A stretch of 32,000 bases of DNA from Aquamicrobium soli (GTDB lineage: Bacteria; Pseudomonadota; Alphaproteobacteria; Rhizobiales; Rhizobiaceae), in contig NZ_JBHRTK010000012.1 of assembly GCF_042646345.1 (NCBI RefSeq), positions 75,330-107,329 on the forward strand, read 5' to 3'. Positions 7,316-23,423 of this stretch are shown here, in pieces. The notes under the pieces were generated by a model, which saw nothing but the letters and a program-made list of their open reading frames with translations, made no database searches and was not told the origin of the DNA. Positions within the stretch are counted from its first letter, which is position 1. Every line of letters begins with the position of its first letter. The translations under genes were made by a program, and so were the position numbers.

Positions 7316-8887
7316 ATGCCCGCCATGACGATCACCCATCCTTCCGACACCGTTCTCATCATCGACTTTGGCAGCCAGGTCACGCAGCTGATCGCCAGGC
7401 GCGTGCGCGAGGCCGGGGTCTACAGCGAGGTCGTGCCGTTCCAGTCGGCGCAGGAGGCTTTCACGCGGATCAGGCCGAAAGCGGTCATCCTCTCCGGCAG
7501 CCCGCATTCGACCGTCGACATCGGCAGCCCGCGTGCGCCGGACGCCGTCTTCACCGCCGGAATCCCGGTGCTCGGCATCTGCTACGGCGAACAGACCATG
7601 TGCGCCCAACTCGGCGGCAAGGTGGAAGCCGGCCACGACCGCGAATTCGGCCGCGCCTTCCTAGAGATCGAGGGCGATTGCGCGCTGTTCGACGGCATCT
7701 GGGCCAAGGGCACGCGCCACCAGGTGTGGATGAGCCATGGCGACCGCGTGACCGCGATCCCGCCCGGCTTCAAGGTGGTCGGCACCTCGACCGGCGCCCC
7801 CTTCGCCGCCATCGCCGACGACGCCCGCAAGTTCTACGCGGTGCAGTTCCATCCGGAAGTGGCACATACGCCGGACGGCGCCAAGCTCATCACCAATTTC
7901 GTCCGCGAGATCGCGGGCCTGCGCTCCGACTGGAGCATGGCCGCCTATCGCGAACAGGCGGTCGAGGCGATCCGCAAGCAGGTCGGCAAGGGCAAGGTCA
8001 TCTGCGCGCTTTCGGGCGGCGTCGATTCCTCGGTGGCCGCGCTCCTGATCCACGAGGCGGTCGGCGAACAGCTCACCTGCATCCTCGTCGACCATGGCCT
8101 GATGCGCAAGAACGAGGCGGCCGATGTCGTCGCCATGTTCCGCCAGCACTACAATCTGCCGCTGATCCTGGTCGACGCCTCGGACAAGTTCATTTCGGCG
8201 CTGGAAAGCGAGAGCGATCCCGAGAAGAAGCGCAAGACCATCGGCCGGCTGTTCATCGAAGTCTTCGAGGAAGAGGCGAAGAAGCTCGGCGGAGCGGACT
8301 TCCTGGCGCAGGGCACCCTCTACCCCGACGTGATCGAGAGCGTGTCCTTCACCGGGGCGACTTCTTCCACCATCAAGTCGCATCACAATGTCGGCGGCCT
8401 GCCCGAGCGCATGAACATGAAGCTGGTGGAGCCGCTGCGCGAACTGTTCAAGGACGAGGTGCGGGTGCTGGGCAAGGAACTCGGCCTGCCGGACAGTTTT
8501 ATCGGCCGCCATCCGTTCCCGGGCCCGGGCCTTGCCATCCGCTGCCCCGGCGGCGTGACGCGCGAAAAGCTGGAAATCCTGCGCGAGGCGGATGCCGTCT
8601 ATCTCGACGAGATCCGCAAGGCAGGCCTCTACGACGCCATCTGGCAGGCCTTCGCGGTTCTCCTGCCGGTGCAGACGGTCGGCGTGATGGGCGACGGCCG
8701 CACCTACGAATTCGTCTGCGCGCTGCGCGCGGTGACCTCGGTCGACGGCATGACGGCGGATTTCTATCCCTACGACATGGGCTTCCTCGGCCGCGCCGCC
8801 ACCCGCATCATCAACGAAGTCCGCGGCATCAACCGCGTCGTCTACGACGTGACCTCGAAGCCCCCCGGCACCATCGAGTGGGAATAA
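7316..8887 (+). CDS. guaA: GMP synthase (glutamine-hydrolysing)
   Basis: 523-aa ORF. GATase-1 domain ([15 protein letters not shown]). ATP-PPase P-loop [11 protein letters not shown]-terminal dimerisation domain ending in the canonical PPGTIEWE. An alternative start is at 7325. Confidence 0.95.
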
Positions 8888-8890
8888 TTC
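8873..8890 (+). repeat. attL core (ATCGAGTGGGAATAATTC), comprising the last codons and TAA stop of guaA
   Basis: Identical 18-mer recurs at 18719-18736. Identity rises to 20 of 21 positions when extended 3 nt to the left. Confidence 0.8.
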
Positions 8891-9014
8891 GCGCCTACCC
8901 AAAAGCCGCCGACAACCGCCGATTTCCCTCCATAACGCGCTGAAAATAAAGAATTTTCTCTCTGTCGTCTTTCGCCGTCAATCGCCGGGCAAGCCTCGCG
9001 ATCGACGGCGGAGC

Positions 9015-9161
9015 TGACGGTATGGGGCGTCTTGTGACACCGAAGATTTGCATATACCGTCATGGCTTAGAGAGCTTGTGACGGTATTTTTTTGGACCTT
9101 ATTCCATTGAGAATAAAGGAAAATTCTCCGTCAGGATTGGTCGATTTTGGCCTGACGGTAT
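9015..9161. promoter_or_regulatory. Cluster of TGACGGTAT repeats; candidate integrase/RDF arm-type binding sites
   Basis: The exact 9-mer occurs at 9015-9023 (+), 9054-9062 (-), 9079-9087 (+) and 9153-9161 (+). Copies 3 and 4 are followed by a T-run. Partial TGACGG copies lie at 8975-8980 (-) and 9128-9133 (-). All sit between attL and the integrase start. Confidence 0.45.
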
Positions 9162-9206
9162 TTTTAGGGGCTCTCTGGCGTTTTTTGAACGATCTTGGAG
9201 GGTCCG

Positions 9207-10463
9207 ATGCTTACCGATGCGGCAATCAAAGCACTGAAACCAAAAGACAAATTATACAAGGTCGCTGACCGTGACGGTATGTATGTCGTCGTGAGCCCGT
9301 CGGGCGCCGTCGTGTTCCGCTATGACTACCGCATGCACGGTCGACGCGAGACCTTGACCCTCGGTCGATACGGGCCGGCGGGCCTCTCTTTGGCCCGTGC
9401 GCGGGAGAAGCTGATCGACGCGCAGCGCTCGATACAGGAAGGGCGGTCGCCGGCCCAGGAGAAGCAGCGCGAGAAGCGCCGCATCAAGGAAGCAAAGAGC
9501 TTCGGCGAGTTTGGCGAACGCTGGCTGCAAGAGCACCGGATGGCCGAAAGCACCCGCGCGATGCGCCGCTCGATCTACGAGCGGGACATCCTACCGACGT
9601 TCCGCAATCGGCTGCTGACGGAAATCACGCCCGAGGATCTCCGGGCGATGTGCGACAAGGTGAAAAAGCGGGGAGCACCGGCCACGGCGGTCCATGTCCG
9701 TGACATCGTGAAGCTGGTCTTCGCCTTTGCTAAGCTGCATGGGGAGAAGGTGCCGAATCCCGCCGAAGAGGTCGGGCCGGCGTCGATCGCGACGTTCGTT
9801 CCCAAGGACCGCTCGCTCTCGCCCGCCGAAATTCGGGTGATGCTCGGCCAGCTAGAGCATGTGGCGACGCTGCCGACAATTCGGCTCGGTCTGAAGCTGA
9901 TCCTGCTAACGATGGTCCGCAAGAGCGAGTTGCAGGACGCGGTGTGGGATGAGGTCGACTTCGAGAATGCGGTGTGGTCCATCCCGAAGGAGCGGATGAA
10001 GCGTTCCAAGCCGCACAACGTCTATCTGTGCGAACAGTCGCTCGACATCCTTGTCGCGCTCAAGACCTGTGCCGGCAATTCGCGCTACCTGCTGCCCTCG
10101 CGCTACGACGCGGATGCGCCAATGTCGCGCGCGACCTTCAACCGCGTCACTACGGCGGTCGTCGTGCAAGCTAAGAAGGCGGGCCTGCCGCTGGAGCCGT
10201 TCACCGTGCATGACCTTCGCCGCACGGGCTCGACGCTGCTTAACGAGCTGGGCTTTAACAGCGACTGGATCGAGAAGTGCCTGGCGCACGAGGACGGGCG
10301 TTCTTCGCGCGGCGTCTATAACAAGGCCGAGTATGAGCACCAGCGCCGCCACATGATGCAGGAATGGGGCAATCTGATTGACGCATGGGTCGGCGGCCAG
10401 AAATACACCCCGACGCTCTATCCGGCCTCCATGGACCTTCTGACCCCGGAGCCTAGTCTTTGA
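9207..10463 (+). CDS. P4-type tyrosine recombinase/integrase (DUF4102 arm-binding N-domain plus catalytic domain)
   Basis: ATG 9207 is preceded by GGAGGG 5 nt upstream; the track start at 9195 is a TTG. N-terminus LTDAAIKALKPKDKLYKVADRDGMYVVVSPSG. Catalytic residues R (MVRKSEL), HDLRRTGST and LAHEDG...GVYNKAEY. Confidence 0.9.
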   Translation: MLTDAAIKALKPKDKLYKVADRDGMYVVVSPSGAVVFRYDYRMHGRRETLTLGRYGPAGLSLARAREKLIDAQRSIQEGRSPAQEKQREKRRIKEAKSFGEFGERWLQEHRMAESTRAMRRSIYERDILPTFRNRLLTEITPEDLRAMCDKVKKRGAPATAVHVRDIVKLVFAFAKLHGEKVPNPAEEVGPASIATFVPKDRSLSPAEIRVMLGQLEHVATLPTIRLGLKLILLTMVRKSELQDAVWDEVDFENAVWSIPKERMKRSKPHNVYLCEQSLDILVALKTCAGNSRYLLPSRYDADAPMSRATFNRVTTAVVVQAKKAGLPLEPFTVHDLRRTGSTLLNELGFNSDWIEKCLAHEDGRSSRGVYNKAEYEHQRRHMMQEWGNLIDAWVGGQKYTPTLYPASMDLLTPEPSL

Positions 10464-10659
10464 CCGGACGGGTCTTCCTGAGCGTGACGTCGGGCGCCGG
10501 CGCACGCTTGGTCGTCTTCGCCTTGGAGGCTCGGCGGCGTTCTTCAAGCCAAGCCTCCACTTCGCCGAGGTCCCAGACGACGGTTCGAGAGGTCAGATAG
10601 AAGCGCTGCGGAAACTCGCCGCGCTGCTCCATGTCGTAGATGGTCGTGTCGGCCATCAT
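10453..10659 (-). pseudogene. AlpA/excisionase-family wHTH gene, apparently 5'-truncated
   Basis: The 68-aa ORF begins MMADTTIYDMEQRGEFPQRF...VVWDLGEVEAWLEERR. This aligns with the second half of the AlpA HTH (xSRSTIYxMxxxGxFPxP...W...EVxxW). The first helix, about 15 aa, is absent. Sequence directly upstream is antisense to a trbB fragment. Confidence 0.55.
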
Positions 10660-10822
10660 GCGCGCCGATCAGGCCGCGACCTTGCGCGAAGCCGTCGCCG
10701 CACGCGCCAACATTCTCGTCGCGGGCGGCACCTCCACCGGCAAGACCACGCTGACCAACGCGCTGCTCGCTGAAGTCGCCAAGAGCGCCGATCGCGTCGT
10801 CATCATCGAGGACACGCGCGAA
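10658..10822 (+). pseudogene. Internal fragment (about 55 codons) of a TrbB/VirB11-type type IV secretion ATPase
   Basis: Reads RADQAATLREAVAARANILVAGGTSTGKTTLTNALLAEVAKSADRVVIIEDTRE, i.e. the Walker A and following strand of VirB11/TrbB. There are no N- or C-terminal domains. The frame runs into antisense ParB-like sequence after 10822. Confidence 0.65.
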
Positions 10823-11618
10823 GCCGTTCCAGCAAGGCCGGGTCTTCAAAGAAACCGCCGCGATCCTCGGTGAACAGGTCGCGGATGATGGTGCCGCCCG
10901 CCTCGGTATAGGCTTGCGCGCCGACGAAGACCGCGCAGCGATCCGTCGCGGCCACGTTCATCTTGGTCAGGTCGCGCCGGATGATGGAGGGATCGCGGTT
11001 ATAGGACAGGTTCTCATAGACGTGTTCCTGCCGCGCGTGATCGTCGGTGATGGCGAAGGCCATCAACTGGTCCAAGGTCAGGTCGCCGTCGCGATAGACC
11101 TGCAACAGCTTCGGGCTGACCGCGCCGAGTCGCATCCGCTGCCTCACCACATGGGCAGTCACGCCGAACCGGGCGGCGATTTCTTCCGCGCCCCATCCAC
11201 GATCCTCCGAAAGCTCGCGGAAGCGCTCGAACTGGTCGGCAGGGTGCAGGTCTTCGCGGGTCACGTTCTCGTCAAGGCTGATTTCCGCCGCGTCGTTCGC
11301 CGTGTCGATGACGCAGCGAATGGGCTCGGTCTTCTTGATCTGCTTGCGCTTCACGCGCAGCATCTGCGCCAGCCTGCGGCCTTCCCCGATGCTGACGAGA
11401 TAGAAGCCGGTCGGCTCGCCGCCTGCGTCAAACTCCGGCTCCACCACCAGATTTTGCAGAATGCCCTTGGCGGCGATGCTCGCCGCCTTCGCCTCGATAG
11501 ACACCTCGCTGTGCGGGGTCTTACGGGCGTTCCTCGGATGCTTCTTGAGCTTGTTGAGCGGGATGAAGACGGTCGCGCCGTGTTCGACGATCGGGGCGGT
11601 GTTGTCGGTCGTGGTCAT
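10803..11618 (-). pseudogene. ParB-like N-terminal (nuclease/partition) domain protein of ICE/plasmid type, 3'-truncated
   Basis: ATG 11618 is preceded by TGGAGAAAGACC (SD). ParB-N motif LKKHPRNARK and an HTH region EIAARFGVTAHVVRQRMRLG. Homologous sequence ends at ...FFEDPALLER. The last roughly 6 codons and the stop are read from the reverse complement of the trbB fragment (10803-10822). Confidence 0.6.
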
Positions 11619-12083
11619 GGTCTTTCTCCAATGGGCTTGGGTTGAAGCGCAGCGCTGCGCTGCAACCCTGCCCGTCGGCGAGACCGGGGGGTGCAAGGTG
11701 CAAGGGCGACCGGGACGGAGGGGGATCACCCGGCCTGCACAAGCGGATCGAAGCCATGGCGAGAGTGGGAAACACGCATCCGCGCGGAAGGCTGGGGAGA
11801 CCGTCCCGGTCGAGCGCCAGCGATCCCTTGCGCCGCGCCAGGGGGCAGAGCCCCTAAGCGATGAGCCTGGTCAGAGCGGAACGGCGGCTTGGCGCAAGGA
11901 CCAGAGGATAGGCCGTTGCCGATCAATTCCCTAGGACGCGCAGAGAAAGCGACATTGGCGCGCTTTAATCGAAGGAATAATAGCTCATGATCCGGGAGAA
12001 CATACCGTTGTCATTAGAGATATGGCTCCTCCTCATCCATCGAGCGAGCTCCGCCCGGAAATTGAGTCAGTGGGGCATTTTCA

Positions 12084-12120
12084 TTGAAAACTGTCAGAAA
12101 AGCTCATAGAGTTCTGACGG
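12084..12120 (+). promoter_or_regulatory. Candidate sigma70-type promoter (TTGAAA-17-TAGAGT) with overlapping inverted repeat CTGTCAGAA/TTCTGACGG
   Basis: TTGAAA at 12084-12089 and TAGAGT at 12107-12112. Inverted-repeat arms at 12091-12099 and 12112-12120 match 8 of 9 positions. It lies immediately upstream of the AbiEi/DUF6088-like gene. Confidence 0.35.
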
Positions 12121-12130
12121 GAGAGTGGGT

Positions 12131-12724
12131 GTGCGACGGTTGACCGAACAGATTCTTGATCATGCAGGTGAGTTGCCGGAGGGAAGTCCTATCGCGGCAA
12201 AAGCCTTGCTCCACCTCGGCAACCGCGCTGCGGTGGATCAGGCACTGTCACGCCTTGCCGAACGAGGTCAGCTGATCCGCGCCGGGCGCGGCCTATATCT
12301 ACGACCTGTTTCCAGTAGACACGGTGTCCGCTCGCCATCGGTACAAAAAGCTGTTGACGCGCTCGCAAGCCAGAAAGGCGAGGTCATCGTGCCGAGCGGT
12401 GCCGCGGCTGCCAATACACTTGGGCTTACAACGCAGGTGCCAATGCGATTGGTCTACCTGACTTCGGGCCGTAGCCGAACGATCTGTTTCGGCAACCAGG
12501 CGATCGAACTGAGACATGCGCCTCGCTGGCAGCTTGCTCTGGCTAATAATCCCGCGGGTGTCGTAATTCGAGCGCTTGCTTGGCTCGGGCCTGAGAAGGC
12601 CGATGCCGCTCTCGTGGCACTGAAGCGTGACCTGCCGCCGTCTACGTTTAACGAACTTATTGCGGTAGCGCCGCAGCTACCGACCTGGCTTGCGCGAAGC
12701 GTCGGAAAGGCCGTTCATGGCTGA
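12131..12724 (+). CDS. AbiEi/DUF6088-like antitoxin-family winged-helix protein
   Basis: GTG 12131 lies 7 nt after GGAG (12120-12123); an alternative GTG is at 12125. Family-like segments LGNRAAVDQALSRLAERGQLIRAGRGLY, VIVPSGAAAANTLGLTTQVP, VYLTSGRSRT, IELRHA and APQLPTWL. Confidence 0.55.
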   Translation: MRRLTEQILDHAGELPEGSPIAAKALLHLGNRAAVDQALSRLAERGQLIRAGRGLYLRPVSSRHGVRSPSVQKAVDALASQKGEVIVPSGAAAANTLGLTTQVPMRLVYLTSGRSRTICFGNQAIELRHAPRWQLALANNPAGVVIRALAWLGPEKADAALVALKRDLPPSTFNELIAVAPQLPTWLARSVGKAVHG

Positions 12725-12880
12725 TTCCCGCCTCCGGTATCTCATCTTCACCCCGGGGGCATCCCCTCGGGCTTTGATCCACCAAAGTGTTATGTATTCC
12801 GCTGTTCTGCCGCAGATGCCTGAAGGCTGTTCGCTTGATCGAGTGCTAGGTCGGGAAATAGCTGGCAATGGAGAAACAAA

Positions 12881-14299
12881 ATGAAGGCGGCTCGAGCAAA
12901 GAGTAGCGGAGATTTAGTTAAAAGAATCTGGGGTCTTTGTCATATACTAAGGGGCGATGGGGTCAGTTATCATGAGTATATCTCTGAGCTTACCTATCTT
13001 CTATTTCTCAAGATCGCAGAGGAAACTGATACCGATAGGGCTTTGCCCGAGGGGTATCGCTGGCGCGACCTTATAGATTACCGCGGAGCTGATCTTCTAA
13101 CCTTCTATCGTGACATGCTGACATACTTAGGTGGTCATGCAGAGAATCGCGTGGTTCAAGAGATTTATGCATTTCCCACGACCGTATTCTCTCATTCGGA
13201 GAACCTGCGGGCGGTCATCGATGGAATTGCCAAGCTTGACTGGCATTCCGTTGATGCCGACGGAATGGGTGATATTTATGAGGGACTCCTAGCCCGTAAC
13301 TCTCAGGATGCGCGATCGGGTGCGGGGCAATACTTTACGCCCCGGCCACTGGTCGACACAATGGTGCGCCTGATGCAACCCGCTGCTGGTGAGGTTGTAC
13401 AAGATCCGTCATGCGGAAGCGGCGGTTTTCTGATCTCAGCCCAGCAGTTCTCCAAAATTATGTCTCCCGGCTCTACTACCTCACCTCGTTTCGAAGGTGT
13501 CGAGATCGAGAAAGGTACTTACCGCATATGCCAGATGAACTCATTTTTGCATGGACTGAATGCGGAATTGATACTTGGTGATGCACTAACTGCGGACGCG
13601 GCGGCACTGACGCCTGCTGACGTGATTTTGGCCAACCCGCCGTTCGGGAATAAGGCAGGCAGCGCGCGAAAATTAAGAGACGATTTGCCACATCGAACCG
13701 CTAATAAGCAGTTGGCGTTTCTGCAGCACATTAGGCTCGCGCTTAAGGAAGGTGGCCGTGCCGCAGTAGTCGTGCCGGACAACGTGCTTTTCGAAGGCGG
13801 TGTAGGGCGGGCAATTCGCGTCGACCTCATGGAAGAATGCGACCTCCACACCATCCTAAGGTTACCAAACGGCATATTCTATAGTCAGGGTGTAAACACA
13901 AACGTTCTTTTCTTTACACGCAGGACGAAAAACCCACGGAACTCTAGCCGTATTTGGGTCTACGACTTACGGACAGAAATGCCTCGTTTCGGTAAGACGC
14001 GTCCATTGCGGCCTGAGCACTTTAGAGAGTTCGAGGCCGTTTATGGAACGGACCCTTTTGGCAGCAAACGCCGTCCGGAATCTGCGGACATTCCCCGGTG
14101 GCGGTCGTTCAAACGGGAGGACATTGCGGCAGCGGGGGACAATCTCGACCTAATATGGATGACGCCGCGTGACGCTGACGAACCCGACAGCTCGACGTTG
14201 CAGGATGTGGCATCCACCGTTCTTTTTCATCTCCAGTCCGCGATCGCCGAAATTGAATCGCTGATGGAAGATCTGCCGGCGGACGAGGTGGAGCGATGA
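12881..14299 (+). CDS. hsdM: Type I restriction-modification N6-adenine DNA methyltransferase subunit
   Basis: 472 aa with GGAG 8 nt upstream of the ATG. HsdM_N region (IWGLCHILRGDG...ELTYLLFLKI), FTPRPLVDTMVRLM, motif I VQDPSCGSGGFL and motif IV ILANPPFG. Confidence 0.92.
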   Translation: MKAARAKSSGDLVKRIWGLCHILRGDGVSYHEYISELTYLLFLKIAEETDTDRALPEGYRWRDLIDYRGADLLTFYRDMLTYLGGHAENRVVQEIYAFPTTVFSHSENLRAVIDGIAKLDWHSVDADGMGDIYEGLLARNSQDARSGAGQYFTPRPLVDTMVRLMQPAAGEVVQDPSCGSGGFLISAQQFSKIMSPGSTTSPRFEGVEIEKGTYRICQMNSFLHGLNAELILGDALTADAAALTPADVILANPPFGNKAGSARKLRDDLPHRTANKQLAFLQHIRLALKEGGRAAVVVPDNVLFEGGVGRAIRVDLMEECDLHTILRLPNGIFYSQGVNTNVLFFTRRTKNPRNSSRIWVYDLRTEMPRFGKTRPLRPEHFREFEAVYGTDPFGSKRRPESADIPRWRSFKREDIAAAGDNLDLIWMTPRDADEPDSSTLQDVASTVLFHLQSAIAEIESLMEDLPADEVER

Positions 14300-15849
14300 G
14301 GAAGCTTCCCCGCGGCTGGGTGCAGACCTCCATTGGCGCGATCGCGGATCTTATAAACGGTCGGGCCTTTAAGCCTTCTGACTGGGGTGCGAGAGGTCTC
14401 CCCATCGTCCGTATCCAAAATCTCAATCGACAGGACACGTCCTTCAATCACTTCTCAGGAAATGTCGATGAGCGGCATCTCGTGCGCTACGGCGATCTGT
14501 TATTTGCGTGGTCGGGCACACCGGGTACGTCTTTTGGCGCGCACATCTGGCGCGGCCCGGAAGCGGTGCTCAACCAGCACATATTCAATGTACGTGTAGA
14601 TTCAGAAGCGGTTAACCGGGAATTCCTTAGAGCTGCAATCAACCACACCCTTGATCAGCAGATCGCAAAAGCTCATGGCGGTGCGGGGCTACGCCATGTC
14701 ACAAAAGCGGCTTTCGAGGCCACGCCGATCGTGCTGCCTCCTCTGGCTGAGCAAAACCGCATCGTAGAGAGGCTCAATGCCTATGAGCAGCGGATAGCCG
14801 CGATCCGCTCGAGCCTTGATGAGGGGGTCGTCGCTGTGGAGAAGGGGCGCTCAGCGCTGTTGGCAGCAGCCTACGATTTAACGCTGCTCCCTTCCACGGG
14901 ATCATATAGCTCCCCTGATAAGGCGCCTTTGGTTTCAGTTGGGGATATTTCTGTCAGCATCGCTTACGGCTCAAGCGCAAAGTCTTCCCCTACAGGAAAA
15001 GTAGTTGTTCTCCGAATGGGTAATATTCAACGGGGAGAACTCGACTGGTCTGACCTCGTCTTCACGTCGGACGAACGGGAGATAGAGCGCTACCTGTTAA
15101 AGCCTGGAGATGTTCTGTTCAACCGTACAAACGGAAGTCCGCAGCTGGTCGGGAAGACGGCAGTTTACCATGGAGAGATGGCCGCGATCCATGCGGGTTA
15201 TCTCATCCGGATTAGATGCGACGATCGCGTTCATCCGGATTACCTTGGATACTGCTTAAACAGTCCCGCTGGTCGCGAATACTGCTTCGCCGTTAGAAGC
15301 GACAGTGCAGGGCAGTCCAATATCAACGCGAAGAAATTGGCTGCATTTCAGCTACGTTGCCCCAGTCTCGAGGAGCAGCAAGCCATCGTGGATTTAGTGC
15401 GGTCCGGCATGAGTCGGCTTGCAGCTGGCGAGGCCGCCGTGACGCAGGCCATTAAGACGCTAGAGAGACTGCATCGTCGAATTATGGATGATGCTCTCGC
15501 GGGTCAGCTTAGCACTAATGATAGCAGCGACGAGCCGGCGAGCGCGCAGCTCGACCGACTAATCGCCACAAAGCAAAAACCCAAAATCCGCGCACAGACA
15601 CGGAGGAGCGGAGCGAAGATCATGAAGCGCACTGTATTGGAGATTTTGCAGGAAGCCAAAGCACCGGTCTCAGCCCAGCAAGTGGCGGAGCTCTATGGCA
15701 TAAAGGAAGGTGCGGCGCCTGAGGAGGTGGAGCCGTTTTATGCTGAGCTTCGAGCGCTGGACCAAGATGGACGATTGATTGCAGAGCCTGTCAAAGACGA
15801 TACCGGCGTCAAACTCGGTGACCGCCTCCAACTGAAAGCTGTCAGCTGA
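14296..15849 (+). CDS. hsdS: Type I restriction-modification specificity subunit with a C-terminal extension of about 100 aa
   Basis: The ATG overlaps the hsdM stop (ATGA, 14296-14299). Two TRDs are present (LPRGWVQTSIGAIADLINGRAF... and LVSVGDISVSIAYGSSAK...). Each is followed by a helical conserved region (LPPLAEQNRIVERL..., CPSLEEQQAIVDLV...). Extra tail from about 15538. Confidence 0.9.
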   Translation: MRKLPRGWVQTSIGAIADLINGRAFKPSDWGARGLPIVRIQNLNRQDTSFNHFSGNVDERHLVRYGDLLFAWSGTPGTSFGAHIWRGPEAVLNQHIFNVRVDSEAVNREFLRAAINHTLDQQIAKAHGGAGLRHVTKAAFEATPIVLPPLAEQNRIVERLNAYEQRIAAIRSSLDEGVVAVEKGRSALLAAAYDLTLLPSTGSYSSPDKAPLVSVGDISVSIAYGSSAKSSPTGKVVVLRMGNIQRGELDWSDLVFTSDEREIERYLLKPGDVLFNRTNGSPQLVGKTAVYHGEMAAIHAGYLIRIRCDDRVHPDYLGYCLNSPAGREYCFAVRSDSAGQSNINAKKLAAFQLRCPSLEEQQAIVDLVRSGMSRLAAGEAAVTQAIKTLERLHRRIMDDALAGQLSTNDSSDEPASAQLDRLIATKQKPKIRAQTRRSGAKIMKRTVLEILQEAKAPVSAQQVAELYGIKEGAAPEEVEPFYAELRALDQDGRLIAEPVKDDTGVKLGDRLQLKAVS

Positions 15850-15850
15850 T

Positions 15851-17524
15851 ATGCGCGTAGATAAGCTCACGATTGGATCTCCGAAAGATAGCGCCACGCA
15901 TAGGTTCAAGAACCTGAAGGACGTTACGATCGATTTTGATCAGAACGACTGGGTTACAGTGGTTATCGGCTGGAATGGCACGGGAAAGTCGAACGTGCTT
16001 GAAGCTTTGGCAGTGATCTTTCGCGAGTTGATTGATACGCGGCGATCCCCAAAGATCGATTTTGCTTTTGTTCTGAAGTATCGGATCGGCAGTGGCGATC
16101 TCCACCGATCAGTCACTATATCGCATGATCCTGACGAAAAAGAGCCATTTAACATTGTAGTGACGTTTATCCCTGTCGCGGAGGGGGCACCGGAAATGCC
16201 TCCAAAGCGTATGAGGATTGGGACATTCCTCAAAGACGATTCAAACCTACCGCGTTATGTCTTTAGCTACTACTCAGGCGAGAGTCCCCGAATGGGGGAA
16301 ATCTTCGCCCCCTATCTCCAATGGTACGATGAGCAGTTGCGGAAAGGCCGAGATCCTGGGCTCAAGCGGTTATTTTACGCTCTTCCGGTACATAGCCAGT
16401 TCGTTCTTCTTGCCTTTCTTATTGGAGGATCGCCCGCCGCCGAAAGCCTGCTACGTGATCATCTGGGTATTGATCCGGAGCATGGCTTCGAGTCGGTTCT
16501 CTTCGTGTTGCGGCAGCCGCCGTGGCCTCCCCACCGAGACGGGGATGCTCGGTTTTGGGGCGCCCGCGGCGTCGTCAGCAGCTTCCTAGATAGACTTCAA
16601 GAGGTTGCGCTCGCGCCAATCAATGTGCAACGGCGGGTCAATACGTCACTTTGGAACAAAACGCGGCTAGAATTCAAATATTTATACATAAAGGACATCG
16701 CAGCGCTGCGCCAGCTGGTGGGTGATCAGCCTCCAGCGCATTTTTTTCGCGACCTTGAGAGCACCTACGTCTCTCAATTGGTTGAGGAAGTGCGGATAAA
16801 GATCAAGGTCGACAACGGTGACGGTACCGTTACCTTCCGCGAATTAAGCGAGGGGGAGCAGCAGCTTCTAACGGTACTTGGTCTTCTTCGTTTCACGGCG
16901 GAAGAAGAAAGCCTGATATTGCTGGACGAGCCTGATACGCACCTCAACCCCAAATGGAGTGTTAAATACCTGGAGTTCCTTCGCCAGTTCATTGGCAACA
17001 CAGCTAGTGAGCAGGAAACAAGCCACGTGATAATGACGACGCACAATCCGATCGCGATTGCCGAGCTATCGTTGCAGCAAGTCCAAATTCTTCAGACCAG
17101 GATTGACGCAGGACACCGCAAAGTTGTGGTGTCGTTTCCAGACGAGCATCCGCGGGGGATGGGATACGCCTCGATTGTGACGAGCAATATGTTCGGAATA
17201 GCCTCGCAGCTCGATGAAACGACGCAGCTTGATCTGGAGCGACAGCGGCATCTCGCGTCTCGAGACAAACTAACTCCAGATGAAGCGACGGAGCTGGATG
17301 CGGTCAATGCGCGGCTAGACCAACTTGGTTTCCGGTTCTTCTTTCCGGATGACGAATACTCGCGGTACCTCCGAATTCGAAATCAAGAGATGGAGAGGGT
17401 ATTCGAAACGAAAGATGTAGAAGTCTTGGCGCGAAGGGTCGTTGATATGACCTTGGAAGAGCGGGAAGCTCTTGCTCGCCGTCTCATATCCACACTTGAG
17501 GAAGATGGGGGCGACATAGCGTGA
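15851..17524 (+). CDS. ABC/SMC-type (AAA_15/21/23-like) ATPase, PtuA-like
   Basis: The ATG lies 1 nt after the hsdS stop. Walker A GWNGTGKS (15968-15991), ABC signature LSEGEQQLL, Walker B LILLDEPDTHLNP and H-loop VIMTTHNP. About 285 aa are inserted between Walker A and the signature motif. No Toprim or helicase motifs were seen. Confidence 0.8.
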   Translation: MRVDKLTIGSPKDSATHRFKNLKDVTIDFDQNDWVTVVIGWNGTGKSNVLEALAVIFRELIDTRRSPKIDFAFVLKYRIGSGDLHRSVTISHDPDEKEPFNIVVTFIPVAEGAPEMPPKRMRIGTFLKDDSNLPRYVFSYYSGESPRMGEIFAPYLQWYDEQLRKGRDPGLKRLFYALPVHSQFVLLAFLIGGSPAAESLLRDHLGIDPEHGFESVLFVLRQPPWPPHRDGDARFWGARGVVSSFLDRLQEVALAPINVQRRVNTSLWNKTRLEFKYLYIKDIAALRQLVGDQPPAHFFRDLESTYVSQLVEEVRIKIKVDNGDGTVTFRELSEGEQQLLTVLGLLRFTAEEESLILLDEPDTHLNPKWSVKYLEFLRQFIGNTASEQETSHVIMTTHNPIAIAELSLQQVQILQTRIDAGHRKVVVSFPDEHPRGMGYASIVTSNMFGIASQLDETTQLDLERQRHLASRDKLTPDEATELDAVNARLDQLGFRFFFPDDEYSRYLRIRNQEMERVFETKDVEVLARRVVDMTLEEREALARRLISTLEEDGGDIA

Positions 17525-18378
17525 GGTATGTTGACATCGGTGATCTGCGTTTGGATGACGGTTGGCCCGCATTGGCGGAAACAGCCTGTCGAGACGTCAT
17601 AGAGAACGGTGCCAGTATTGCTAGCCACGATGATTTATGGCGGGATACTAAGAAGCGCTTGGGCGCGTTGCTTCACGACAAATGCTGGTTCTGCGAAACA
17701 CCCGTCGATCGATCAGATAATGCGGTTGATCATTTCCGCCCCAAAGGGAGAGTAGCGGACGCTCTTCAGGAACATAACGGTTATCGCTGGTTGAGCTTTG
17801 AGAGCCGCAATTTTCGCTTTGCATGTACCTTCTGTAATAGTCGAAGAGTGGATATCGAGAATGGGACTGCTGGTGGCAAAGCTGATCGCTTCCCCCTCGT
17901 TGATGAGGGCGCGCGAGTATACGCAGTTGATCCGGCGGTGATCGATTACGACGATTTGATTGCTACTGTAGAGGCCGAAACCCCGGCGATTCTCGATCCG
18001 TGTGACCCAGATGACTGGCTTCTGCTCGGATGCAAACGTGAGAATGGAAAGCCATGTGCTACCAGCTCCGAGCCCGCCGCCATCCGCCGTGTCGAGCAGT
18101 CGATTGAAGTATATCATCTCGACTATGAACCCACATGCAAACGGCGCCACACCGTTGCTGGCCAGCTTCTCGAAAAGGTGCGCGAGGCAAAAAAAGCATT
18201 TCTAGAGATCGATGAGGCCGATTTGAAAACTACGCGACGCTTTAAGCAGCTGTTTGTGGAGATACATCGTATGATCAAGATGAAGGCCCCTTTCAGCGGC
18301 GAAATGCACTTCTTGCTGCAAGGGCAGCGTTCTCCAGATCACCCCTGGATCGAAAACGTTCTTAGCGCAGGGGGGTGA
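17521..18378 (+). CDS. HNH (beta-beta-alpha-Me) nuclease, PtuB/TIGR02646-like
   Basis: The GTG start overlaps the ATPase stop (GTGA, 17521-17524). The motif block at 17683-17838 reads CWFCE-x10-DHFRPK...W...N...CTFCN, i.e. two Cys pairs plus the catalytic His. 285 aa. Confidence 0.75.
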   Translation: MRYVDIGDLRLDDGWPALAETACRDVIENGASIASHDDLWRDTKKRLGALLHDKCWFCETPVDRSDNAVDHFRPKGRVADALQEHNGYRWLSFESRNFRFACTFCNSRRVDIENGTAGGKADRFPLVDEGARVYAVDPAVIDYDDLIATVEAETPAILDPCDPDDWLLLGCKRENGKPCATSSEPAAIRRVEQSIEVYHLDYEPTCKRRHTVAGQLLEKVREAKKAFLEIDEADLKTTRRFKQLFVEIHRMIKMKAPFSGEMHFLLQGQRSPDHPWIENVLSAGG

Positions 18379-18718
18379 GGTGGGTTCAAACTGCCATCAA
18401 AATTCTGCTGAGTGGATCAGGGTACTATGTTTGAATACGCAGTTCGCGATCTCGCGACGGTGGGCGATTCACTGTGTTGAGGTATGATATGTAATGCTCA
18501 CGGTACTTTTTTGATGCTGATCAAGTTCGCCAAACCGGCATAGAGAGGTGCAAATGATCCGACTGGTCTCGATAGTAGGCGAAACCACGAAAATTTTTTT
18601 CCAGAAATTTTCCTTTTGAAATCAAAAGCATAACTTTTTGACGGTTCGCACGTCGGTTTGTGCGTTCTATTTGGATTAAATTTGTATATATTTCAAAGCG
18701 TTAGGTTGAGTTTGAACA

Positions 18719-18736
18719 ATCGAGTGGGAATAATTC
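18719..18736 (+). repeat. attR core (ATCGAGTGGGAATAATTC), a displaced copy of the guaA 3' end
   Basis: Exact duplicate of 8873-8890. It is flanked on the left by AT-rich island DNA and on the right by GC-rich chromosome. Confidence 0.8.
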
Positions 18737-18747
18737 TTTTCCACTCG
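18721..18747 (+). other. Stem-loop CGAGTGG-N13-CCACTCG overlapping the attR core; probably the native guaA 3' hairpin
   Basis: A 7-bp perfect stem (18721-18727 / 18741-18747) with loop GAATAATTCTTTT. The right arm is absent at the attL copy. No downstream U-run, so this is not a canonical terminator. Confidence 0.35.
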
Positions 18748-18816
18748 GAGTCCACGCCACGGTACCGAGGGAAAAATCGCGGCCTTTTTCGCTGATAGAC
18801 CCGGTGCGGTAAGAAA

Positions 18817-19743
18817 TCAGGGGGCCGGCAGGTTACGGCTATCGCCAGGCATGAGATGGCCGGCGGAGGCGGTGATGATTTCTCCGAGCTCAACAAAGTC
18901 CTGCTTGCGCGGAGAGCTCTTGCGCCAGGCCAGCCCGATGGTCCGCTTCGGTTCGGGATCCTCGAAGCGCATCAGGTGAATGTTCTCCCGCCGGGTTTCC
19001 AGGCCGACGCTCATTTCCGGGATCAGGGTCATTCCGAAGCCGTTGGCCACCATTTCCAGCAGGGTGGACAGGCTCGAGACGCCGAAGGTGGCGGCATTCT
19101 CGACCTGCCGCAGCCCGCAGAACGTCAGCGCCTGATCGCGGAAGCAGTGGCCTTCCTCCAGCAGCAGCAGTTTGTCGCGTTCGACCATGTCGGGGGTGGC
19201 CCGCACATGGTTGGTCATCTTTTTCGAGCGTGGCATCGCCAGCAGGAAGCGGTCGTCGAAAAGCCGCAGCGTTTCGACCGCGGGGTCCTCGATCGGCAGC
19301 GCCAGCAGCAGGAGGTCGAGGCTGCCGTCCAGCAGTTCGCGCAGCAAGAACTGGGTCTGCGTCTCGCGCAGCGAAAGATCGAGATCGGGATAGGCCGTGC
19401 GGATCGAAGGCAGCAGGCCGGGCAGGATGTAGGGGGCGACCGACGGGATCACGCCCAGCCCGAGCCGCCCGGACAACGGCCTGCCGTCCTGCCGCGCCAG
19501 ATCGACGATGTCGCGCGCATCGGCAAGCATGCGCGCGGCGCGAAGGGCGATGCTCCTGCCGCTGTTGGTCAGCATCACCGGCCCCCGGCCCCGCTCGAAG
19601 AGCGCGACGCCCAGGAACTTCTCCAGCTCCTGTATCTGCATCGAGAGCGCGGGCTGGGTAACGCCGCATTCCTCCGCAGCCGCGCCGAAATGCCCGCAGC
19701 GGGCCACGGCGTCGAAATACCGGATCTGCTTCAGCGAAACCAT
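18817..19743 (-). CDS. oxyR: LysR-family peroxide-sensing transcriptional regulator OxyR
   Basis: 308 aa. N-terminal HTH LKQIRYFDAVARCGHFGAAAEECGVTQPALSMQIQELE. Redox Cys pair in EEGHCFRDQALTFC. Divergent from a catalase gene. Confidence 0.85.
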   Translation of the reverse strand: MVSLKQIRYFDAVARCGHFGAAAEECGVTQPALSMQIQELEKFLGVALFERGRGPVMLTNSGRSIALRAARMLADARDIVDLARQDGRPLSGRLGLGVIPSVAPYILPGLLPSIRTAYPDLDLSLRETQTQFLLRELLDGSLDLLLLALPIEDPAVETLRLFDDRFLLAMPRSKKMTNHVRATPDMVERDKLLLLEEGHCFRDQALTFCGLRQVENAATFGVSSLSTLLEMVANGFGMTLIPEMSVGLETRRENIHLMRFEDPEPKRTIGLAWRKSSPRKQDFVELGEIITASAGHLMPGDSRNLPAP

Positions 19744-19745
19744 CC

Positions 19746-19796
19746 CGATCAGTTTTCCTTATTTCTTTTGGAAGCCATTATGATTGGACCTGATCG
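19746..19796. promoter_or_regulatory. Candidate OxyR operator / divergent oxyR-katA promoter region
   Basis: Inverted repeat CGATCAG (19746-19752) / CTGATCG (19790-19796) brackets an AT-rich 37-bp stretch directly upstream of oxyR. Position and size resemble LysR/OxyR footprints. I could not align a clear ATAG-N7-CTAT consensus. Confidence 0.3.
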
Positions 19797-19951
19797 CCGG
19801 GATTGTCTACCCTGAGGCGCTGCCGCATCCTTCGCACGAGCGACGAGCGCGGGCAGGACACCCGAATTGCATGGACGCTGCCCCAGCAACAGGGCAGGTC
19901 GACACACGACCCAACCATCCGGAAGACACGCCGGAAACGGCCAGGAAAGGA

Positions 19952-21454
19952 ATGACCCCCATGACAGACAAGAAACCAGGCATCGGCTCCACCACGGGCA
20001 CCGGCGCGCCCGCGCCCAGCGACCGCAATTCGCTGACGATCGGCGCGAATGGCCCGATCCTGCTGCACGACGTGCATTTCCTGGAACAGATGGCGCATTT
20101 CAACCGGGAGAAAGTGCCTGAGCGCCAGCCGCACGCCAAGGGCTCGGGCGCCTTCGGCACCTTCAGGACCACCGAGGACGTGTCGGCCTTCACCAAGGCA
20201 GCGCTGTTCCAGAAGGGCGCCTCGACCGAGATGCTGGCGCGCTTTTCCACCGTCGCCGGCGAGCAGGGCAGCCCCGACACCTGGCGCGACGTGCGCGGCT
20301 TCTCGCTCAAGTTCTACACCAGCGAGGGCAACTACGACCTCGTCGGCAACAACACGCCGGTTTTCTTCGTGCGTGATCCGATGAAGTTCCCACACTTCAT
20401 CCGCAGCCAGAAGCGGCTTCCCGATTCGGGCCTGCGCGACAACCACATGCAGTGGGATTTCTGGACCAGCAATCCCGAGACCGCGCACCAGGTCACCTAT
20501 GTGATGGGCGAGCGCGGCCTGCCGCGGACCTGGCGCCACATGAACGGCTACGGCTCCCACACCTATATGTGGATCAACGCCAAGGGCGAGAAGTTCTGGG
20601 TGAAGTACCACTTCCACACCCAGCAGGGCATGAAGTTCTTCTCCAACGAGGAAGCGGCCGCCATGTCGGGCGCCGACGCCGACTTCCACCGCCGCGACCT
20701 GTTCGACGCCATCGCGCGCGGCGAGCATCCGAGCTGGACGCTGTCGGTGCAGGTCATGCCCTATGCCGAGGCCAGCGCCTATCGCTTCAACCCGTTCGAC
20801 CTGACCAAGGTGTGGCCGCATGCCGACTATCCGCTGATCAAGGTCGGCACCATGACGCTCGACCGCAACCCGGAGAATTTCTTCGCGCAGATCGAGCAGG
20901 CAGCGTTCTCGCCGGGCAACACGGTCCCCGGCATCGGCCTGTCGCCGGACAAGATGCTGCTCGGCCGCGCCTTCGCCTATGCCGACGCGCAGCGCAACCG
21001 CATCGGCACCAACTTCCACCAGCTTCCGGTGAACCAGCCCAAGGTGCCGGTGAACACCTACATGTTCGACGGCCAGATGGCCTACCACCACAGCGGCAAC
21101 GCCCCCGTGCACGCCCCCAACAGCGGCGGCCGCGACTGGACGGACAATACCGGCCCGGTTGCCGACGGATGGGAAGCCGACGGCGCCATGGTGCGCAGCG
21201 CCTATACCCTGCATGCCGAGGACGATGACTTCGGCCAGCCGGGCAAGCTGGTGCGCGAGGTGTTCGGCGACACCCAGCGCGCCAATCTGGTGGACCAGGT
21301 CGCGGGCAGCCTGCTGGGCGGCGTGCGCGAGCCGGTGCTGAGCCGCGCCGTCGACTACTGGAAGAACATCGACGCCGAAACCGGGCGCCGCATCGAGGAA
21401 AAGGTCCGCCAGGGCAGCACGCCGAAGCCCGCCGAGGGCATGGGCGAGGCCTGA
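19952..21454 (+). CDS. katA: Monofunctional haem catalase
   Basis: The start is ATG 19952 or 19961, with AGGAAAGG at 19943-19950. Active-site region [22 protein letters not shown], then RFSTVAGE and a proximal-side segment [14 protein letters not shown]. The track ORF start at 19784 is an unsupported extension. Confidence 0.9.
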
Positions 21455-21608
21455 GCGCCAGCGACCGGGCCGCACGCCTGTCCGAGCACCATTCGTCCGG
21501 GCAGGCGGGCGGCCCGTTTCCGGCCGCACGAACGGGGCGGCGATCCCCAAACTTCGCCGGCGGTCTGCTATAGGAAGACACCTTCCTGATTCCCCGACGC
21601 AGGCCGCC

Positions 21609-23423
<1,815 letters not shown>

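Follow-up and report, generated by a model that had tools for sequence, protein, structure and literature searches.

Septu, which pairs the ABC-type ATPase PtuA with the HNH nuclease PtuB, was reportedly described by Doron et al. in 2018. It has anti-phage activity, and its proteins form a PtuA6:PtuB2 assembly under ATP regulation. Systems embedded in Type I restriction-modification (R-M), BREX and DISARM loci are said to have been reported by Payne et al. in 2021 and 2024. Here we analyze a 32-kb stretch of the Aquamicrobium soli genome (the window), in which an integrated island carries a four-gene cassette, hsdM-hsdS-ptuA-ptuB. A Septu pair there follows the methyltransferase (HsdM) and specificity (HsdS) subunits of a Type I system, with no gene for the restriction subunit (HsdR). 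Our survey of related loci indicates that a whole Septu subfamily never leaves its Type I methylase core, and that the specificity subunit carries a domain apparently dedicated to PtuAB. What are usually taken for two distinct anti-phage systems probably work here as a single one.

Several described systems bear on this locus. In retron-Eco7, PtuAB is sequestered by a partner module (PMC12819146, PMC12640716, PMC12673091). PrrC is embedded after hsdS, masked by EcoprrI, and regarded as an R-M guardian (PMC12707154; 10.1101/2024.01.29.577857), in the arrangement HsdR-HsdS-PrrC-HsdM (PMC11555353). Embedded systems have been treated as independent, and 0.7% of Septu systems are embedded in Hma (10.1101/2024.01.29.577857). 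MADS is listed among methylation-based systems (10.64898/2026.09.23.753747).

The features of the cassette, in window positions, are the following.

12881-14299, + strand: hsdM, Type I N6-adenine DNA methyltransferase subunit (Pfam N6_Mtase 4e-71; PADLOC MTase_I 592 bits)
14296-15849, + strand: hsdS, specificity subunit (Pfam Methylase_S, AlphaFold model, alignment)
15602-15849, + strand: putative internal translation start in hsdS, with Shine-Dalgarno (SD)-like GGAGGAG at 15602-15608, GGAG at 15610-15613 and ATG at 15622
15634-15834, + strand: C-terminal acidic winged-helix domain of HsdS, amino acids (aa) 447-513 (AlphaFold models, alignment)
15851-17524, + strand: ptuA-like ABC-type ATPase (PADLOC PtuA PDLC00302; Pfam AAA_21/AAA_15/SMC_N)
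17521-18378, + strand: ptuB-like HNH nuclease (PADLOC PtuB PDLC00330)

The four genes are open reading frames (ORFs) of 472, 517, 557 and 285 aa, respectively. The first two overlap by ATGA (GCGATGAGG), hsdS and ptuA lie 1 nt apart (TGAtATG, GCTGATATGCGC), and ptuA and ptuB overlap by GTGA (AGCGTGAGG). Among 98 related loci, the distance from the hsdS stop to the ptuA start is at most 12 nt in 96% (mode 2 nt), and an overlap of 4 nt is the commonest between ptuA and ptuB. Because the close spacing of hsdS and ptuA is kept so widely, the tight junctions are not due to chance. The G+C content of the cassette is 52-57%, against 64-70% in the flanks.

All four proteins could be assigned to families. 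HsdM also matches Pfam HsdM_N, and its translation carries motif I (DPSCGSGGF) and motif IV (NPPF) of a Type I methyltransferase subunit. HsdS matches Methylase_S (7e-22) in two stretches. Its AlphaFold model (predicted local distance difference test, pLDDT, 85) contains target recognition domain (TRD) 1, a central helix (aa 150-194), TRD2, a distal helix (aa 358-401) and an extra C-terminal domain. EcoKI HsdS matches it at 112 bits, and the alignment ends at window residue 443. All three lines of evidence (Pfam, AlphaFold and EcoKI) identify a specificity subunit with two TRDs split by conserved helices. PtuA matches its PADLOC profile at 819 bits over residues 1-552 and has the Walker A (GWNGTGKS), ABC signature (LSEGEQQ), Walker B (LILLDEPD) and H-loop (TTHNP) motifs of a Septu PtuA. 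PtuB, encoded directly downstream, matches its own profile at 310 bits over residues 1-282 and carries the HNH motifs CWFCE...DHFRP...CTFCN, as expected of a Septu PtuB. Solved retron/Septu PtuA chains match the window PtuA only distantly in sequence (46 bits), and a sequence comparison of PtuB with the PDB gave no match. The initial annotation of the window, made by a model from the sequence alone, had described the four coupled ORFs and their junctions exactly, and every motif it named for HsdM, the ATPase and the HNH protein is present in the translations. Pfam and PADLOC hidden Markov model (HMM) searches bear out its Type I HsdM/HsdS and Septu calls, and the HsdS model contains the two TRDs and both conserved helices that it had proposed.

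The cassette resembles Septu in having an ABC-type ATPase gene followed by an HNH nuclease gene, in the overlap of these genes, and in its full-length matches to both PADLOC profiles. Canonical Septu is an autonomous two-gene system, whereas in the loci surveyed here the pair never occurs without hsdS and hsdM, and HsdS bears a dedicated winged-helix domain. By PADLOC criteria the pair is Septu; it falls under the NCBIfam cut-offs for retron-type PtuA (NF041760, 47.5 bits against 500), TIGR04435 and TIGR02646, the last of which matches PtuB. TIGR04435 ('restriction system-associated AAA family ATPase') is curated for a Type I neighborhood and matches the C-terminal half of PtuA, but it does so at 123.9 bits against a cut-off of 300 and over residues 315-468 only, which makes it a related family of which the window protein is not a member.

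Retron-Eco7 (Ec78), of type I-A, offers a further likeness, as PtuA and PtuB stand there under a separate sensor/inhibitor module in the same operon. Its partner module is a reverse transcriptase (RT) with multicopy single-stranded DNA (msDNA), whereas the cassette has a Type I methyltransferase core and a winged-helix adaptor. A retron-Septu was rejected: the island has no RT ORF, and an Rfam scan of 8000-20000 gave no match at E ≤ 0.1. As in PrrC/EcoprrI, an ABC-ATPase-linked nuclease lies inside a Type I locus right after hsdS, and the order hsdR-hsdS-ptuA-ptuB-hsdM seen among relatives mirrors HsdR-HsdS-PrrC-HsdM. Latency imposed by the Type I complex would, by analogy, be a further shared trait. 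PrrC has a fused anticodon nuclease, whereas the HNH nuclease here is a separate protein, so that the architecture differs. PrrC was moreover described with hsdMSR, whereas a whole lineage of the present family lacks HsdR, and its HsdS has a special tail. The 25 top PADLOC matches listed for PtuA, and those for PtuB, do not include PrrC.

Septu genes nested in Hma are also embedded in a methylation-based system in the same orientation (10.1101/2024.01.29.577857). Unlike such embedded systems, the subfamily described here is obligately linked to its host system, which carries a dedicated domain and can dispense with its own nuclease. MADS shares a Type-I-like methyltransferase and S subunit with an AAA_15-type ATPase, has no classical HsdR-only logic, and gives weak PADLOC/NCBIfam matches to mad2, mad3 and mad5. 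It differs in having eight genes, and the island holds no further mad genes. MADS was rejected on the NCBIfam scores for MAD2 (88.8 vs 720 bits), MAD3 (36.8 vs 420) and MAD5 (42.7 vs 400), and MANTIS on scores and gene content. Literature searches turned up no account of an HsdMS-PtuAB unit, nor of the winged-helix tail on HsdS or its internal start; coverage was incomplete, and a prior description is possible.

To place the cassette among its relatives, we compiled 99 loci (the window and 98 further loci) with PtuA 42-98% identical, from Pseudomonadota, Bacteroidota and Chloroflexota. They came from genomes, contigs carrying database homologues, 80 metagenome contigs and plasmids; a scan of a genome collection with a single PtuA sequence gave only four loci. 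ORFs were classed against reference proteins, and absence of hsdR was judged where at least 3.5 kb of flank was available on both sides. In all, 69 loci had enough flank for hsdR to be scored, the remaining contigs being too short. Every locus with enough flank has hsdS directly upstream of ptuA, then ptuB, with hsdM in the operon. PtuAB of this subfamily without hsdM and hsdS occurs in none of the 99 loci, a pattern of gene linkage that argues against PtuAB autonomy. The view of the initial annotation that the four genes are one functional unit and not a chance stack is strongly supported, both by this obligate linkage and by the dedicated HsdS domain.

The HsdS tail, which had been called unusual from the start, is the most informative feature of the cassette. 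In a seven-locus HsdS alignment, the C-terminal ~75 aa are conserved even where both TRDs are unrelated. AlphaFold models this domain as three helices followed by a beta hairpin, after a disordered basic linker (aa 431-443). The tail modeled on its own reaches a pLDDT of 87.5, and Foldseek returned generic winged-helix folds only, all at E > 0.001. The tail (~70 aa) is present in every PtuAB-linked HsdS. An exhaustive phmmer search of 1.84 billion representatives found it nowhere but at the very C-terminal end of proteins the size of HsdS or in ORFs of ~75 aa, once the top hits P0243, P0244 and P0248 had been rejected as MucBP-repeat adhesins with scores summed over repeats. This search was used instead of a word-indexed one with a 113-aa tail, which gave two proteins only. 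HsdS proteins with the same TRD pair (~50% identical) and no tail occur in ordinary R-M-S loci without PtuAB. The tailed relatives are followed by PtuA-PtuB, with no hsdR in the available flanks, and one of them has a divergent tail. Tail net charge is -6 in the window, averages -4.2, and is negative in 96% of 73 loci. Acidic charge is atypical for a DNA-binding winged helix and therefore suggests protein docking; we propose that the tail is a docking or adaptor domain for PtuA or PtuB.

The tail also appears to have a translation start of its own. ATG 15622 encodes Met443, the first tail residue, with the SD-like motifs 8-19 nt upstream, and the nested in-frame ORF 15622-15849 encodes a predicted free winged-helix protein of 75 aa. 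Across 72 loci, the codon at the tail boundary is of start type in 64 (ATG 38, GTG 25, TTG 1). Where the boundary residue is valine, it is encoded by GTG in 25 of 27 cases, compared with 31% GTG elsewhere in the same hsdS genes. SD-like motifs at -18 to -5 were found in 86% of loci against a background of 14% (binomial P about 6e-43), and the enrichment was lost when the reference point was moved by 15 nt. Databases also hold stand-alone proteins of 74-76 aa that start at this Met. These patterns suggest that the tail is probably made both fused to HsdS and free, as a putative 75-aa protein.

Related arrangements were seen outside the set of recognized tails. HsdS proteins of ~515-521 aa (P0154, P0155, P0158, P0168, P0169, P0170, P0175 and P0180) have ~80-aa C-terminal extensions with the same helix pattern, too diverged for the tail HMM; the Sulfitobacter HsdS among them (P0169, L102:8001-9563) is followed by a PtuA/PtuB pair, with no hsdR. 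HsdS adaptor tails may be a broader phenomenon. Two tail-less loci hold possible further embedded defence candidates: a 626-aa DUF7380/EMARD_N protein overlaps the hsdS stop of an R-M-S locus (L099:9323-11203), and DUF3800 genes lie between hsdR, hsdM and hsdS in L101 (4575-5195 and 6911-7564).

The initial annotation had reported no hsdR in the island. Neither hsdR nor a fragment of it was found anywhere in the 32-kb window, using an HMM built from 43 family HsdR sequences and tblastn with two HsdR types. No protein encoded there is a Type I HsdR subunit, and the locus, in these 32 kb, is not a complete Type I R-M system. Where the flanks suffice, 52 of 69 loci (75%) retain hsdR, as do 49 of 54 (91%) in the metagenome sample, which was not selected for closeness to the window. 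Writing R, S, A, B and M for hsdR, hsdS, ptuA, ptuB and hsdM, the order R-S-A-B-M was found in 44 loci (plus three that end at a contig edge) and R-M-S-A-B in five. The 17 loci without R comprise 14 of order M-S-A-B, window included, each bordered on both sides by 3.5 kb or more free of R, and three of order S-A-B-M; no hsdR fragments were detected in them. A complete R, M and S set surrounds PtuAB in 52 loci, and in most relatives hsdR sits upstream of the cassette, not after the HNH gene. As PtuAB stands beside HsdR in most relatives, the pair is an ancestrally embedded partner and not a substitute. Other branches of the family lost hsdR in separate events (L048/L050, L086, and Pantoea and Roseomonas plasmids). 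Judged by gene content across the survey, HsdR is an optional accessory in this family, and M and S are never lost. Two Pseudomonas viridiflava loci (L011:14113-19533 and L012:14182-19533) carry, directly downstream of R-S-A-B-M and on the same strand, an ORF of 1,783-1,806 aa that has no Pfam hit.

In a neighbor-joining tree of PtuA, the window and 11 other distinct sequences form a monophyletic R-less clade. Its hosts are Nitrospirillum, Phyllobacterium, Azospirillum, Methylorubrum, Sinorhizobium, Klebsiella, Dyadobacter and metagenomes. All members have the order M-S-A-B, and none with enough flank has hsdR. Mobile elements of Alphaproteobacteria, Gammaproteobacteria and Bacteroidota carry the R-less cassettes, either beside integrases, in an integrative and conjugative element with type IV secretion genes, or in plasmid-like settings. 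The ratio of nonsynonymous to synonymous substitution rates (dN/dS) among the window, L001 and L002 is 0.03-0.07 for hsdM, ptuA and ptuB (hsdM 0.04-0.07). It is 0.08 for ptuB in the L003-L018 pair, and 0.11-0.14 for hsdS in the R-less clade. Catalytic motifs are intact across the clade (HsdM I and IV, Walker A and B, signature, and HNH). Monophyly, low dN/dS and intact motifs together indicate that the clade is not decaying. On this phylogenetic evidence, the loss of hsdR in the window lineage is ancient and stable, not a local or recent deletion remnant. The initial annotation had also held that simple deletion would be implied if homologous loci almost always carried hsdR directly after the HNH gene; hsdR is indeed present in most relatives, but there it precedes the cassette, and the loss is an old one.

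Specificity also evolves differently with and without HsdR. TRDs were compared at fixed offsets from the HsdS C-terminus, which replaced a regex anchoring of the conserved regions that caught 34 loci only, and were called the same at >35% identity. In loci with hsdR, TRD1 is the same in ~6% of pairs and replaced in ~94%, even at PtuA identity of at least 85%, a shuffling of specificity that is normal for Type I systems. All 55 pairs within the R-less clade share their TRD2, and TRD1 is likewise shared except in pairs with L013, the basal Dyadobacter member. TRD1 is 74-86% identical in the clade, the most conserved segment of the cassette, and among PtuAB-linked loci the TRD pair of the window occurs only there. 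By these pairwise identities, TRDs are shuffled in loci with hsdR and frozen in the R-less clade. The frozen TRDs argue against an ongoing restriction arms race in that clade, and the comparisons indicate that the R-less lineage retains a working, constrained DNA-recognition module with no sign of a specificity arms race.

Some R-less members have decayed. In L104 (5674-7228) and L010 (8453-9999), hsdS is truncated or frameshifted, with the 75-aa tail ORF and ptuAB intact. In L103 (9700-12952), an insertion sequence interrupts ptuA, and hsdM is truncated.

We tentatively favor, with a probability of roughly 0.45, a reading that makes the methylase core the obligate partner, and the guard or sensor, of PtuAB, by analogy with PrrC or retron-Eco7. 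PtuA and PtuB would be hard-wired to the HsdM2-HsdS core, and the acidic winged helix, flexibly tethered to HsdS and probably also free as a 75-aa protein, would dock PtuA or PtuB. The core would sense and regulate, keeping PtuAB latent in the way that EcoprrI restrains PrrC and RT-msDNA restrains the pair of retron-Eco7. A phage that perturbed the core, for instance by means of a DNA-mimic anti-restriction protein or because foreign DNA is engaged, would then cause the nuclease to be released or activated; its target may be DNA or tRNA. The window lineage lost HsdR long ago, and integrative and conjugative elements carry the four-gene cassette from host to host. Such a guard fits both the frozen TRDs and the fact that most relatives have HsdR beside PtuAB, and there are precedents in PrrC, which holds the same Type I position, and in retron-Eco7, which has the same effector pair.

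Several points weigh against this reading. The catalytic motifs of HsdM are strongly selected without HsdR, which fits PtuAB reading methylation better than a pure guard. The contact of the tail with PtuA or PtuB is a putative one. The remoteness of PtuA from solved chains and the lack of a solved PtuB relative make any transfer of mechanism from Septu or retron-Eco7 weak. The R-less clade is small (~12 distinct sequences), so that the contrast in TRD turnover comes from a limited sample. Absence of hsdR was established for the 32-kb window, with the rest of the genome outside the search.

Next in standing, though rather unlikely, is the first reading of the initial annotation, taken here as a novel type of R-M enzyme in which the M2S1 complex would find unmethylated sites and recruit or activate PtuAB through the HsdS tail instead of HsdR, so as to cut incoming DNA, with methylation protecting self. 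In a variant suited to a mobile element, the cassette would be an addiction module with PtuAB as toxin and methylation as antidote. The window clade, without hsdR, has kept HsdM motifs I and IV at the low dN/dS given above, as if methylation still mattered, and M and S are never lost whereas R is. Furthermore, the tail links the effector genes to the specificity subunit, the TRD1 swap in L013 shows that specificity can still change without hsdR, the location on mobile elements suits an addiction role that needs no TRD turnover, and MADS provides a precedent for Type-I-like M and S with an AAA_15 ATPase. As stated, the claim that PtuAB fills the HsdR slot is unsupported, because PtuAB coexists with intact HsdR in ~75% of relatives with enough flank (and in most of the metagenome sample), which would make a second effector redundant and replacement not ancestral. 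TRDs frozen without hsdR and shuffled with it are the opposite of what is expected if PtuAB had taken over restriction, and PtuA comes without a translocase. We know of no mechanism by which PtuAB would read methylation state. It is likewise doubtful that HsdM-HsdS-(winged helix)-PtuA-PtuB forms a distinct class of R-M enzyme, in which PtuAB docked through the HsdS adaptor (also free as the 75-aa protein) would supplant HsdR, an SF2 translocase-nuclease, and destroy DNA with unmethylated sites.

It is improbable that the cassette is a classical Type I system completed in trans by an hsdR of the same family elsewhere, with PtuAB an embedded guard as in the relatives that have HsdR. HsdR subunits of one Type I family can serve several M2S1 cores, relatives of HsdS and HsdM are widespread in canonical R-M-S loci that encode an HsdR of 1082-1127 aa, and our inspection of the genome spanned 32 kb only. 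A compatible resident HsdR is unlikely in each host of mobile R-less cassettes that range across Alpha- and Gammaproteobacteria and Bacteroidota; moreover, 17 loci have no hsdR in the 7-13 kb to either side, and frozen TRDs are unexpected of an actively restricting system.

An autonomous Septu that merely sits beside an orphaned methyltransferase through historical hitch-hiking, with a tail of unrelated role (DNA binding or regulation), is likewise improbable: autonomous systems are often embedded in modification-based ones, such as Septu in Hma (10.1101/2024.01.29.577857), stand-alone Septu suffices for defence in other subfamilies according to the literature, and the generic winged-helix fold of the tail is common to transcription factors, but the S-A-B adjacency is unbroken and no locus lacks M and S despite rearrangement, TRD recombination and repeated loss of R, the presence of the tail tracks that of PtuAB, the tail is acidic, and purifying selection acts strongly on hsdM and hsdS among the R-less loci of the clade. 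The second reading of the initial annotation, a Septu stacked on a methyltransferase orphaned by loss of hsdR, was right in that hsdR was lost; that same selection on hsdM and hsdS shows that the methylase is not merely an orphan.

The cassette lies in a ~9.85-kb island flanked by a 21-nt direct repeat with one mismatch (repeat search), in agreement with the att-bounded island of the initial annotation. Apart from the cassette, its features are these.

8870-8890: left border, attL-like repeat (ACCATCGAGTGGGAATAATTC), which takes in the final codons of guaA and its stop
9195-10463, + strand: tyrosine integrase of the island (Pfam Arm-DNA-bind_3, Phage_int_M, Phage_integrase)
10453-10659, - strand: AlpA-like excisionase/regulator (Pfam Phage_AlpA 3e-9)
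10803-11729, - strand: ParB-like helix-turn-helix (HTH) protein, cargo or maintenance (Pfam HTH_ParB 6e-6, weak ParB_N)
12125-12724, + strand: AbiEi-like/DUF6088 winged-helix protein (Pfam DUF6088 2e-27; PADLOC AbiEi 216 bits)
18716-18736: right border, attR-like repeat (ACAATCGAGTGGGAATAATTC), with host-level G+C resuming just beyond

The island is inserted at the 3' end of guaA (GMP synthase, ORF 7316-8887, ending ...PPGTIEWE), and the 18-nt exact core of the border repeat (ATCGAGTGGGAATAATTC) restores the guaA stop. Window positions 11930-18465 are 93% identical to L001 and 85% to L002, within otherwise unrelated flanks. The AbiEi-like gene, 157 nt upstream of hsdM, travels with the cassette in L001 and L002 and is missing in L016. 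Its product scores 30 bits against the NCBIfam AbiEi model (cut-off 150). The island has no ORF for an AbiEii partner, the next gene being hsdM, and thus no AbiE pair. The AbiEi-like protein may regulate transcription of the cassette. Upstream of other R-less cassettes lie small regulators of other kinds (MarR in L097; Gp49/HTH_37 in L005).

Between ptuB and the right repeat lies an A+T-rich, non-coding gap of ~340 nt (18379-18715), whose only terminator-like hairpin, at 18647-18664, is weak. The stretch 18559-18729 shares 73% identity with a remote part of L002 and may be island-end sequence. Counts of promoters and terminators showed no excess over shuffles. Beyond the right border, translations alone assign a LysR/OxyR-like regulator (18817-19743, - strand), a catalase transcribed away from it (19784-21454) and then a RecQ-type helicase (21609-23423), all of them ordinary housekeeping genes. 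RecQ is the sole helicase in the inspected region 9000-22000 and lies outside the island, which, as the initial annotation had said, has no helicase ORF.

Overall, the hypothesis that we followed up holds in part: the four genes make up one functional unit, but replacement of HsdR is not established. Defence-system finders would call this locus Septu plus an incomplete Type I system, embedded systems being taken as independent neighbors. The cassette is a variant of the already known Septu and R-M-embedded guardians. Its obligate wiring, its adaptor with a nested start, and an R-less lineage with frozen specificity would nonetheless surprise specialists. The contrast between frozen and shuffled TRDs offers a sequence-only signature that distinguishes restricting from non-restricting Type I systems. 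If the methylase core does guard PtuAB, this would be a third mode of PtuAB control, beside stand-alone and retron, and the R-M guardian concept, exemplified by PrrC and PARIS, would come to cover an HNH/ABC pair that has a defined docking module. The 5.5-kb mobile cassette would then be a compact model for how a methyltransferase complex signals to a non-cognate nuclease.

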